Shown here in pieces: positions 19,591 through 50,873 of a DNA stretch of 64,000 nt; position 1 is the first letter of the stretch; each line of letters starts with the position of its first letter. The notes under the pieces are model-generated. The model ran no database searches. It saw only the letters and a program-made list of their open reading frames with translations, and was not told where the DNA came from. Made by a program: the position numbers and the translations under genes. The DNA lies in contig OX597819.1 of NCBI GenBank assembly GCA_951406725.2, positions 108,934,001 to 108,998,000 on the forward strand, read 5' to 3'. The DNA comes from Octopus vulgaris (taxonomy: Eukaryota).

Positions 19591-19806
19591 AGTTAATACA
19601 AACATGAAAACACCAATAGAAAACACAGCAACGCGAGGACGTGGAACAAATATAGTATTATTGGACGCTCAGGAAGGAAGGGAAGAAGGAGGGTTTTACG
19701 TTTCGAGCGGAGCTCTTCGTCAGAAACATAGGAAAAGGAAAGATCCAGAGAAAGGAAGACGGAGGAAAAAAATCGCCAACGGTACACAAACGGTCACATT
19801 TTGAAT
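19591..19806 (-). mobile_element. ~200-bp hammerhead-bearing element (probable Penelope-like pLTR), flanked by (TA)n
   Basis: Closely similar to both arms at 47152-47642. Confidence 0.8.
19693..19727 (-). ncRNA. Minimal type I hammerhead ribozyme motif
   Basis: Reverse complement reads GTTT-CTGACGA-A-GAGC-tcc-GCTC-GAAAC-GTA-AAAC: intact core, helix II, palindromic ACGT helix III, GUA triplet and helix I GTTT/AAAC. Confidence 0.75.
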
Positions 19807-42528: not shown

Positions 42529-45465
42529 CTATGGCGTACCGATGTTTATTTGGCCACCCCTTAAAAGTTCTAAAAGTTCAAAACGCCAAAAACCGAATAA
42601 TACAGGTATATATGTATGCAAAATAAGAAGACAAACTGTAGCAACTATTTATTCCCCCCAAATTTACTTTTATTATGTTTATACACAAAAAGTAATAGGA
42701 AAAATATGTCAAAGAATAGAAGATGAGTGAATTACAAAAATAAATGACTTACAAATTGATTTTACGTGCCTTCCTCTTCGCGAAATCTTGAATGATTTCA
42801 TCAAAATTAATTTTATCCGCAAGGTCGCGCTTATTTGACTTATTGTTGACCTGAGGTGGTTTAGTTTAGAAAAGGACCGCTCGCAGCTAGAAACACTAAT
42901 GGCACGAGTTAGGAAGACTCTTAAAAGTATTACAATATTTGGCAATGAATCAATAAGATTATATTTCTGAATAAACTGAAGAACTTGCAAAGGCCCTTCC
43001 ATGTCTTCAGCGTCAGCAGCTCCCAAATAATTTTGCAGTCTTGCCCTTTCGACTAGAAAGTCTTCTCTTTTAATATTCTTATCAAAAGCATCTACATCAC
43101 AATTACACACTTTATCTAACAAATTGGACGGTGTGGGAAAGGTGTATTTCTTTGCAATATCGTGAAGTCTTTCGAATCTATAGGTTTTTTCTTCAACCAG
43201 TCTATCTATCACTGACAACATTTCTCTTCTTAGCTCAGCGTCGTAACTGAGAGTGGAATCGATACTTTCTTCGTAGCCCATTCTTTTCTTTTTGCGAATT
43301 CGACGCTCTGTGCTGATTCCCATATCAGAGTAATTTTCGCTTGAATAGGGCAACGCGTCATTTACTGTTTTGTTTCTGCTAACAAGTAGAGAAGTTTTTC
43401 AAGGCTGATAGTTTAATGACACATTGTTGCAATTCCAGACCTTTCGTTTGGAGGTACTTTTGAGTGTCATTAATTTCAGGAAGTATATCTCTCCAAAGGC
43501 CAAAAAATGACAAGAAAGAAAATGGCAGCATCGCCTGAAGAATTAAACCTGCATCAGACCTCGTAGTTGCGTTTTCTGCATTTTCCATCAACCGTTTAAG
43601 CGCAGCGAAGATTTCCGTGAATTTTGTATGTACAGCTTTCACTGCATCTGCTCGACTACTCCATTTCGTTTCCCCAGCCTGTTTGATAGTTGCACTTGTT
43701 ATCTCAATCAAAATATCCCATCGATGAGTTGAGGCTGAGAAGAATGAAAATAAACGGTCCAATGTACCAAAAAATGTAACTGGATCTGCACCAGCTGAAG
43801 CTGCATACACAGCTGCTAAATTCAGAGAGTGATCGGTACATGGCACAAATACAATCTTTGGATTAACTTCTGTGATGCGCGCTTGAACACCGAATCGATG
43901 ACCTGCCATTACTGACGCATTATCAAATGCTTGTCCACGAAAGTCTTGAATGTTAATGTCTTCCATTTCTAATTCATTCAGAATCATTGATGTAATTTGC
44001 TCAGCATTTTTGCCTTTCATCTCGATAAAACGAACAAAGGATTCTTCTACTTTTACTTCTTTTTCACCTGTTTTAACATAACGTAGCACCTGAGAAATTT
44101 GGTCAATATGAGAAATGTCTGGAGTACTATCAAAAATAATGCAATAGTATTTACTCTGTCTCACTTCATCGATAACTTTCTTTCTCACTTGATCTCCCAA
44201 TGGGAAGTTGTAAACTTATCAATTTTTACTTTTACCAAACGTTCATGTAGCATTGGGTCGAATTTTCCAATAAGTTGAACAAGCTCCAAAAAATGTCTTT
44301 TATTTTCATTTGCCTTCTCAACTCGAATGTCTTTTCTCTGGCCTCGTAAAGCTAGGTTTTGCTTAGCAAGAAACATAATTATGTTCAAAAATCTAGTCAG
44401 GATTTGCTTCCATTTCTTTGTTTCATTTTCAACAAGAGTTTGTTGTTCTTTGTCTATTACCTTGCCTTTGAAAAGGCGAATTTCTAGCTCTTTCCACTGA
44501 GTGAACGCATTCTCATGTGCATGGCTAGATTCATGTTCTTGTATCTTGGGATTCAATTTCCACCAAGATTTGAAACTATCAACTGAACAAAACTTTGAGT
44601 TTTCACTCGAAAATAGCTTACAACAAAAGCAAAACACGGCTTCTTTCGATGGAGAGTATATCATTCAAGTTCTCAAGATTTTTCCCCGTTTTGTAAAGTT
44701 CGAAAAAATAAATTTCTTGACAGTCTTCTAGTCTCCCCTTTCAGTTTTGCTATTTGTCCTGGAGGTACAACTTCTTTAAATTCACAGTCAATATTTTGCA
44801 CAGCGTTCGATCCTTGTTATACAAGGATTTCCCGAATACCGTCATCATGATTAAACTTAGCAGGCTACATCCCAATGTCTTCCAAATTAATATTAGAGTT
44901 TTGTTCTTCAGTAGTTTGTGGTGGATCAACATCAACTTCATCTTCTATCTTCTTTTCAAGTTGCACTTCATTAACAATATCATCTCCATGACCTTCTACA
45001 GTAATACCAATTTCGTCTGGACGGTCGGGTCTGATGAGAAATTTAATTATGGCACCTTCGTTTCGCCTTTCTTTTTCTTCTCCCGTTTTTCTTTTCATTT
45101 TTTCTTTTTTCGAAATGCTGCATCGCTGTCCTTAATTCGCTTCATCTCAAATTATATCAGTGATATCGTAAATTTATATGAATAAAACCAAATAGAGTAT
45201 AGACCAACCTAAAAATTAATCAACTTTCTGAATATCATCGACACAAACACAACATTACTGTATTAACAATATTTTACTGTATATTACACAATATTAACAC
45301 ACAATACAAGTTTACCGATGATAGATTTAAATTTCAAAGAAATCTTAATAGCAACTATACATTATTAAAGTCTATAATATTTATACTGCATTTTTATTAA
45401 TGATATATCAATACAAATAAATTGTGCCGCCCGGGGTGGACAGCCCCCGTCTTGGTACGTCACTG
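42529..45465 (-). mobile_element. Full-length hAT DNA transposon (2937 bp)
   Basis: Perfect 8-bp TSD ATCAAATA at 42521-42528 and 45466-45473; imperfect 12-bp TIRs CTATGGCGTACC / GGTACGTCACTG; internal transposase. Confidence 0.93.
42749..45145 (-). pseudogene. Frameshifted hAT transposase (ZMYM1-like: TTF-type Zn finger, DUF4371-like region, hAT dimerisation domain)
   Basis: Fragments YSPSKEAVFCFCCKLF..HESSHAH, FLAKQNLALRG, IIFDSTPDISH, GQAFDNASVMAG, CTDHSLNL, TKWSSR, SCERSFSKL, INFDEIIQDFAKRKARK are split over five or more frame segments. Confidence 0.93.
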
Positions 45466-46392: not shown

Positions 46393-46599
46393 ACTCTTAC
46401 TCTTTACTCTTTTACTTGTTTCAGTCATTTGACTGCGGCCATGCTGGAGCACCGCCTTAAGTCGAGCAAATCGACCCCGGGACTTATTCTTTGCAAGACC
46501 AGTACTTATTCTATCGGTCTCTTTTGTCGAACCGCTAAGTGACGGGAACGTAAACACACCAGCATCGGTTGTCAAGCAATGCTAGGGGGACAAACACAG

Positions 46600-46920: not shown

Positions 46921-47139
46921 AGAGAGGGTGCTGAAAAGTTCATGGCTTTGGGTAAAAGAAAGTACAGCAGGATCTGTTAATTGTGATTTTACTCAACATA
47001 TTCCCCGCTCAGATTCGCACACTTATTGCAGCGGTCCTTCAGTTTTTCTAAATCCTGTAAAAGAACTCGGAAGATTGGGCCTCCAACCAAGCCTTTCACG
47101 ACACCCTTAAAGCCAGTGACTTTTTCCAGTACACCCTCG
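46921..47139 (-). mobile_element. Mariner-derived MITE
   Basis: TA-flanked imperfect ~28-bp TIRs GAGGGTGCTGAAAAGTTCATGGCTTT / AAAGCCAGTGACTTTTTCCAGTACACCCTC; the minus strand keeps a transposase-like end LEAQSSEFF..KDRCNKCANLSGEYVE. Confidence 0.8.
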
Positions 47140-47151
47140 TATATATATTCA

Positions 47152-47345
47152 AAATGTGACTGCGTGTGTACCGTTGCCGATTTTTTTTCCTCCGTCTTCC
47201 CTTCTTTGGATCTTTCCTTTTCCTATGTTTCTGACGAAGAGCTCCGCTCGAAACGTTAAACCCTCTTTCTTTCCTTCTTTCCTGAGCGTCCAATAACATT
47301 ATACTTGTTCCACGTCCTCGTGTTGTTGTGTTTTCATGTTTGGAT

Positions 47346-47433
<88 letters not shown>

Positions 47434-47642
47434 AAGTTAATCCAAACAAGAAAGCACAAAAAACACAACAACGCGAGGACGTGGAACGAATATAGTATTA
47501 TTTGATGCTCAGGAAAGAAGGAAAGAAAGAGGGTTTAACGTTTCAAACGGAGCTCTTCGTCGGAAACATAGGAGAAGGAAAGATCCAGAGAAGGGAAGAC
47601 AGAGGGAAAAAAATCGCCAACGGTACACAAGAGGTCACATTT
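47152..47642. mobile_element. Inverted pair of hammerhead-bearing ~200-bp elements around (TA)n
   Basis: 47152-47350 is the reverse complement of 47435-47642, with an ~84-bp (TA)n spacer. Confidence 0.88.
47227..47261 (+). ncRNA. Minimal type I hammerhead ribozyme motif
   Basis: GTTT-CTGACGA-A-GAGC-tcc-GCTC-GAAAC-GTT-AAAC. Confidence 0.72.
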
Positions 47643-47749
47643 ATATATGATTTTTTTTTTGATTTTTCCAGTTTCAGCTAATGAGCTGTGGCCATGCTGG
47701 GGCACCGCCATTTATATATTAATAATTAATATATATATTAATAATTAAT

Positions 47750-50660: not shown

Positions 50661-50694
50661 TGGTTCGCAATGTTGATGTAGTTCTTTACTTTTT

Positions 50695-50873
50695 TGTCTT
50701 TTACTTGTTTCAGTTATTAGACTGCGGCCATGCTGGGACACCGCCACGGAGGGTTTTAGTCGAACAACTCGAACCGCTAAGTTATGGGGACGTAAACAAA
50801 CCAACACCGGTTATCAAGCGATGGTGCACAAATGCAAACACAAGGGGCACCTACACACACACATACATATACG

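Follow-up and report, generated by a model that had tools for sequence, protein, structure and literature searches.

In the available text of PMC8557442, EN+ Penelope-like elements (PLEs) of the Neptune/Nematis type carry a single ORF that encodes a reverse transcriptase (RT, with DKG and YIDD), a C-x4-C-xx-C linker and, at the C terminus, a GIY-YIG nuclease with CCHH. Their pLTRs form direct repeats and partial tandems, copies are 5′ truncated, and linker-bearing clades are associated with (TA)n. The octopus element analysed here is alike in all of these features. It is unlike them in that the pair of copies we describe stands tail-to-tail rather than as an inverted copy at the 5′ end, and in that the optional tail of 30-40 bp is not evident at the 3′ ends we sampled, which have only a 2-nt variant. 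Minimal PLE hammerheads, as far as the available parts of PMC4209133 and PMC6765202 describe them, are type I with a short helix I, an extra base between positions 9 and 10.1, a G10.1-C11.1 pair and a palindromic 15.2-16.2; they are mostly solo, with some opposite-strand pairs 100-700 bp apart. Our motifs share these properties and differ in the core, where the majority base at position 4 is C and one of three related families (family C) has U at position 6. The text available from PMC4209133 gives low in vitro activity for PLE hammerheads and no evidence of cleavage in vivo, whereas here genomic 5′ ends step at the predicted cut.

Three other systems bear on the comparison. In the anole Poseidon element PAc (PMC11167929, available text), reverse transcription initiates at an internal site of the RNA, downstream of the pLTR hammerhead, as it likely does here; in both, targets are AT-rich and genomic 3′ ends mark the start site. 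The Poseidon internal priming site is not homologous to the target, whereas we find a match to the TA-rich target in three families; hammerhead cleavage was dispensable in vitro and neither reads nor RNA ends were found at the cut, whereas here stubs begin at the predicted cut. Among precedents for inferring the position of a ribozyme cut from junctions in the genome, the closest is R2 with its 5′ HDV-like ribozyme, where, in the part of PMC3774820 available, 5′ junctions reflect the template cut and variable junctions show microhomology. R2 differs in ribozyme, element class and target, and its cut defines full-length copies, whereas here the cut is the mark of a minority class among the stubs. 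Non-LTR retrozymes (bioRxiv 10.64898/2026.07.22.740005, available text) are likewise short and non-coding with a type I hammerhead and are related to PLE pLTRs; however, they are tandem hammerhead units, and the 200-bp unit here is dispersed and forms the end of a coding element.

The inverted pair and its parent element

The window is a stretch of 64,000 nucleotides of the Octopus vulgaris genome (GCA_951406725.2, contig OX597819.1, positions 108,934,001 to 108,998,000). A repeat search of it found inverted arms at 47152-47334 and 47460-47642 (183 nt, 90% complementary), and alignment of 47147-47349 (+) with 47642-47436 (−) gave 179 identical bases out of 198 plus one 9-bp indel. The left arm (47147..47349, +) is a solo pLTR stub of PLE family A, U4 sub-lineage, whose 5′ start is the A of the initiator-like TCATT of this family. 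Its nearest copy elsewhere is 98% identical, and its sequence also flanks ORFs in long copies. The right arm (47434..47642, −) is a solo family A stub of the C4 sub-lineage, 9 bp longer, with two extra T at its 3′ end as in the element's own continuing sequence; it is 95% identical to its nearest copies elsewhere and 90% to the left arm. Between them lies a (TA)42 target tract (47350..47433) common to both insertions, which confirms the earlier description, made without database searches, of two ~200-bp copies facing each other across ~84 bp of (TA)n. A third family A stub (19592..19806, −) is unpaired, has the same 5′ start as the arms, a GUA triplet and TA on both sides.

We assign no function to the inverted layout. 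If transcribed, it would give a 200-bp double-stranded stem; folding (−350 kcal/mol) supports the proposal that a read-through transcript would pair sense with antisense as a long hairpin rather than form a ribozyme dimer. The locus itself is ordinary, a single TA tract in which two stubs of an abundant retrotransposon lie. By eye, no host exon was recognised among the 82 open frames of ≥110 codons in the window. Another abundant short repeat (family D6; 47650-47709, 46397-46456 and 50686-50745) flanks the pair. The left neighbour (46923-47139) has gapped end similarity and TA on both sides and looks by eye like a small Tc1/mariner-derived element, and the repeat finder detected no inverted repeat in it. 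Three overlapping open frames on the minus strand (42709-44664) read like what we take to be a decayed hAT-type transposase.

From its sequence context, we identify the arm as the direct terminal repeat (pLTR) of an ORF-bearing Penelope-like element. Searching the same genome with the arm gave 2,574 first-look candidates, of which 40 were scored. All 30 loci retrieved end at the same base, most run into TA and 7 extend further 5′, and a walk upstream reached a 2.3-kb broken ORF, then a CA-rich 3′ UTR, then the arm. At locus L061, a broken RT-GIY-YIG ORF is followed by ~1.1 kb of 3′ UTR, the arm and TA. Among the 20 long copies examined (20 of 40 listed), the arm is in ORF orientation in 18 and on both sides in 10, and open frames of 1008-1009 codons are found in three, all of family B. 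The element combines a single ORF with PLE-type RT and C-terminal GIY-YIG, pLTR direct repeats or partial tandems and a hammerhead inside the pLTR, the hallmarks of EN+ PLEs. Pfam returned RVT_1 and then GIY-YIG matches in that order, with only the RVT_1 of L215 above the curated cut-off, and most of those listed among 733 homologues have the same domains. The translations of L075, L078 and L080 contain the RT-EN linker C-x4-C-xx-C and a CCHH nuclease; the label Neptune, over Nematis, is our presumption from motifs. Both motifs fall within the CX2-5CxxC linker and CCHH by which Neptune/Nematis are defined in the available text of PMC8557442. The link to Penelope-like elements suggested in the sequence-only reading is thus borne out, as the arm flanks an RT and GIY-YIG ORF; genome-wide, in copy number, flanks, tandems and ORF linkage, it is abundant, TA-flanked, found in partial tandems and linked to RT/GIY-YIG.

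Three related families were distinguished. Family A, that of the window, has no complete ORF in the 10 long loci examined. It counts at least 9,507 copies, and 6-7 matches in 5 of 60 sampled 10-kb stretches give an estimate of ~28,000-33,000 copies for the 2.8-Gb genome, with a 95% range of 10,000-67,000. The family B arm is 73% identical to that of family A, and 3 loci are open. The RT region of family C is 66% identical to that of A, and its 40 listed copies are 99% alike. Family C (L214-L221) is very young, with open frames of up to 966-1024 codons and a full tandem at L218, yet it has the U6 hammerhead core.

The hammerhead and the ends of copies

The left arm contains a minimal type I hammerhead (47227..47261, +) with intact helices and core, a GUU triplet and a predicted cut after 47257. 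Its 5′ half consists of helix I GTTT (47227-47230), the core CTGACGA (47231-47237) and an extra A (47238), a feature typical of PLE minimal hammerheads; its 3′ half consists of helix II GAGC/GCTC (47239-47249), GAAA-CG-TT (47250-47257) and AAAC (47258-47261). The core C3-U4-G5-A6-N7-G8-A9, G12-A13-A14, the NUH triplet, helices I and II and the palindromic helix III are all present. A descriptor that checks helices I and II and the palindromic helix III gave 14 matches in 600 kb of evenly spaced genome versus 0, 0, 0, 0 and 1 in five shuffles, and the motif is therefore not due to chance. Sequence and descriptor scan together verify the complete left hammerhead with palindromic helix III that had been proposed. 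The proposed check against Rfam came out negative, with no hammerhead match at the gathering score nor at E≤10; the E-value matches obtained were long-hairpin models (miRNA, snoRNA) that fit the inverted repeat, and we rejected them as artefacts. Minimum-energy folding of monomer or dimer, a method uninformative here, did not recover the hammerhead fold.

The right hammerhead (47533..47567, −) has the core CCGACGA and a damaged helix II (GAGC/GTTT), in which two G-C pairs, including G10.1-C11.1, are now G-U and the helix is no longer sound. It had been described as mutated in core and helix II. The helix II part stands; the core part does not, as 71 of the first 100 family A matches listed have C at position 4, 27 have T and 2 have A. 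Since CCGACGA is the commonest family A core, the right-arm core is normal and not a mutation of that copy, and the private damage, judged from these alignments, is in helix II only. C4 also occurs in family B copies with open ORFs. U4C is a natural variant with lower in vitro activity in the available text of PMC3088659. We rejected an origin of U4 solely by CpG decay, as T is found in 27/98 copies against 25/400 for four other cytosines in CpG context, and as copies with U4 group together in the tree. Across families, the hammerhead is identical at 32/35 positions between A and B and at 29/36 between A and C, versus 41-47/70 in the 70-nt flanks, so that the core and helices are better conserved than their surroundings. 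In family C a helix I pair is swapped from G-C to C-G, which we count as one compensatory event, not many; loop II is changed and helix II kept.

Several further motifs were seen alongside. The motif TTTCCTGAGC (47278-47288, ~20 nt after the cut) is invariant in seven aligned copies from families A, B and C, and the GAGC within it might act as a competitor for the 3′ strand of helix II or as a binding site for the element's protein. At least three more hammerhead-like families occur in the sampled DNA (L093:968, L109:9801, L135:9957, L021:2868), some with a long helix II. A tandem array with a 359-bp unit, 98-100% identical, lies at L088:2745-4770 (G000:C1, ~20.003 Mb) and L088:7000-7700 minus; each unit has a type I hammerhead with GUC and a palindromic helix III, and an inverted copy lies on the 5′ side of the array. 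The array has the look of a genuine non-LTR retrozyme, one with no relation to family A.

We mapped 5′ junctions with a pattern of eight TA bases (a perfect 8-nt run), ≤30 free bases and an exact family anchor. Joins were counted by hand among the first 100 matches listed per search; overlapping plus-strand matches were collapsed per locus, and minus-strand totals were counted as one per locus. The 5′ ends of short copies cluster at two positions, the initiator-like TCA and the predicted hammerhead cut. The TCA lies ~110 nt before the predicted cut, and both window arms and the 19592..19806 copy start there. Of the 35 loci listed for family A, 13 have their start at −4 to 0 and the others 3′ of that, with 0/35 in the 9 positions upstream; in family C, 0/20 listed loci start in the 15 positions upstream, and in family B the wall is leaky (3/21 upstream, P 0.057). 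Because the C preceding the A is part of many starts, the start cannot be fixed to an exact base. Transcription of Penelope in D. virilis starts inside its pLTR (PMC2377424, available text), which makes transcription start the likely cause of this wall; by that analogy, the TCA is likely a transcription start site. One of the 27 long copies with mapped 5′ ends starts near the TCA. Four contigs from presumed RNA runs, of a kind that cannot show a pile-up of begins or ends, showed none when compared with pLTR-5′ UTR. At one family B stub (G000:C25:15685926-15685967), an extra G directly precedes the putative start A, a single case, as cap copying would give.

The second pile-up is a step at the cut in the three related families, ~10-fold at the GUC site and 3-6-fold at the GUU sites. 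Only 2/36 family A loci start in the 9 positions upstream of the cut (P 5e-4), 0/38 family B loci in 12 positions (P 8e-9) and 10-12/42 family C loci in 16 positions (~3-fold step, P 2e-3). Over the whole genome, the minus strand of family B has 15 junctions in 31 nt upstream versus 87 in 19 nt downstream (9.5-fold), and that of family A has 78 upstream versus 318 downstream, with 146 and 191 in controls. Per base, minus-strand junctions of family A number 4.7 at arm positions 45-75, 2.5 at 71-101, 2.0 at 100-108, 13.7 at 109-130 and 6.2 at 126-156, and the anchors of these windows matched at similar rates (48-51 of 78). Relative to the two outside control windows, the excess that follows the cut is no more than 2-3 times. 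The ratio of cut-type to TCA-type stubs is 87:11 in B (GUC) and 318:1630 in A (GUU), and since the A TCA anchor matches less often (28/78), the gap between B and A would only widen. GUC cuts faster than GUU. Taken from these junction counts, the pile-up at the predicted cut likely records in vivo hammerhead cleavage.

It is possible, though we consider it rather doubtful, that the stubs have the same identity and the pile-up reflects RT stalling at the folded hammerhead, or T-rich microhomology, instead of cleavage. An RT arriving from the 3′ side would be halted by any stable fold close to the 3′ strand of helix I; however, the largest step is in family B, where helix I contains a U-U mismatch but the triplet is GUC, and helix II, the strongest hairpin, would halt RT ~8 nt upstream of the cut, in the stretch with the fewest junctions. 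Stalling also agrees with the spread of junctions over ~20 nt after the cut rather than on one base, in T-rich sequence that favours microhomology joins, but the TCA wall has the same wall-and-tail shape, and junctions at +1 or +2 after the cut are present in 3/36 (A), 4/38 (B) and 7/42 (C) cases, which TA microhomology blurs. A pyrimidine-rich control window with 4.7 junctions per nt versus 2.5 inside the hammerhead favours stalling, as do the absence of RNA ends at the cut in the element of PMC11167929 (available text) and the long copies, among which 0/27 with mapped 5′ ends start at the cut; the idea that full-length copies start there is not supported. A literature search, with most subscription papers, Repbase reports and supplements outside it, found no published report of a 5′-end step at a PLE hammerhead cut.

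At the other end, 38 of 52 sampled family A 3′ ends run directly into TATATA (21) or TTTATA (17), the registers of the left and right window arms, respectively, and these counts uphold the suggested preference for (TA)n sites. Where copies stand in tandem, a TA-rich word follows the arm and precedes the unique 5′ UTR; the word is TTTATATA in family A, ATTATA in B and TTATATAT in C, and insertions stop at it. We infer that the nicked target would pair with the TA-rich word and prime synthesis inside the RNA.

Stub or separate element, and the origin of the pair

It seems unlikely that the 200-bp unit is a separate SINE- or retrozyme-like element whose short masters are transcribed from a start site of their own into the TA tract and are copied by the PLE protein. 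Most top-match loci (23/30) are solo copies with a common 5′ start, and a stub contains the putative start site as well as the 3′ junction, as such an element would; however, short, 5′-extended and ORF-bearing copies are mixed in the same clades, and the same TCA wall is found in family C, whose RT-region copies are 99% identical. PLE-derived retrozymes have been published (bioRxiv 10.64898/2026.07.22.740005, available text), and locus L068 has two extra stubs in tandem with TA between them, but we saw no retrozyme-type tandem array of the 200-bp unit, whereas the different 359-bp hammerhead unit forms one. Instead of the head-to-tail hammerhead units without an ORF of their own that mark non-LTR retrozymes, we observe dispersed solo copies and ORF linkage. 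The stand-alone non-coding derivative or retrozyme-like unit of the sequence-only reading has to be given up, as ORF-bearing elements carry this very sequence as their direct terminal repeat.

For the pair, the PLE terminal repeat stubs likely represent two independent insertions into opposite strands of one (TA)n tract, as judged from sequence. The arms fall into different clades of a tree of 78 unique copies (of 91 extracted) and differ in core base, 9-bp indel, 5′ start and 3′ TT; being of different sub-lineages, 90% identical and tail-to-tail, they are likely independent. A PLE inverted pLTR, truncated, is joined at the 5′ end in one event (PMC8557442, available text, for the 5′ position); here it is the 3′ ends that point towards one another, and the two arms belong to different sub-lineages, which removes the proposed match to the inverted pLTRs left by PLEs. 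Genome-wide, we found 37 tail-to-tail junctions with a 20-50 bp spacer; four of these, on one contig, are one repeated unit, leaving 34 other pairs. These comprise 14 twins (96% or more identity over 40 nt or more), 8 unlike pairs (83-95%), the class to which the window pair belongs, and 12 that overlap too little to call. With 273 TA tracts of ≥20 bp per 600 kb, rough arithmetic that assumes 10,000 ends per strand gives ~40 unlike tail-to-tail pairs expected at any spacing, so independent hits on one tract suffice, and both strands are equally good targets because (TA)n is its own complement. A MITE reading of the pair was rejected, as the arms occur singly elsewhere.

A single event followed by divergence, whether one protein-RNA complex priming both strands or a fold-back duplication, is very improbable for the window pair and already largely refuted: 14/34 pairs elsewhere are near-identical twins, the L212 arms share private changes and a Poseidon protein has been found to cut both strands and extend them in vitro (PMC11167929, available text), but the window arms differ at the sub-lineage markers and each is closer to copies on other chromosomes than to its partner. 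The twins (L177-L210, L212) often have one long and one short arm, and the two arms at L212 also have the same 5′ start; twins could come from priming of both strands in a single event, from fold-back at a later time or from an artefact of assembly. L211 and L213 are head-to-head pairs whose 5′ ends have a short TA tract in common, which is the arrangement described for inverted copies of PLEs.

A proposed route of insertion

As a whole, the observations are best explained by pLTR stubs of a Neptune-type PLE, inserted independently into opposite strands of (TA)n and produced by run-off from RT primed ~200 bases inside the RNA, a reading to which we give a probability of about 0.75. In this scheme, the GIY-YIG nuclease would nick (TA)n, and the nicked end would pair with the UA-rich word in the RNA and prime synthesis, after which RT would run off the RNA 5′ end, either capped or ribozyme-cut. 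Uncut RNA would yield a 200-bp stub with a whole hammerhead, as in both window arms, and hammerhead-cut RNA a stub of ≤ ~92 bp. A jump or ligation across the RNA 5′ end would give the long partial tandems, a step in line with the circular-template proposal in the available text of PMC4209133.

A more detailed joint reading stands at about even odds. It holds that the stubs, tens of thousands in number, may be a record of the RNA ends used by the element, that hammerheads, including those with U4C, may cut the template in vivo with GUC ahead of GUU, and that the microsatellite may be primed via the UA-rich word. Neptune-type priming would then resemble telomerase template alignment, unlike the homology-free priming of Poseidon.

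The family bears on the role of PLE hammerheads. A route of this kind would also provide a way to target microsatellites and to regenerate pLTRs, two points that the available text of PMC8557442 and PMC2377424 lists as unresolved. The three families, two of which have open ORFs, differ in triplet (GUC, GUU), core (C4, U4, U6) and helix I, and these natural differences among families A, B and C give a graded prediction that is open to a cleavage assay and an end-mapping library.
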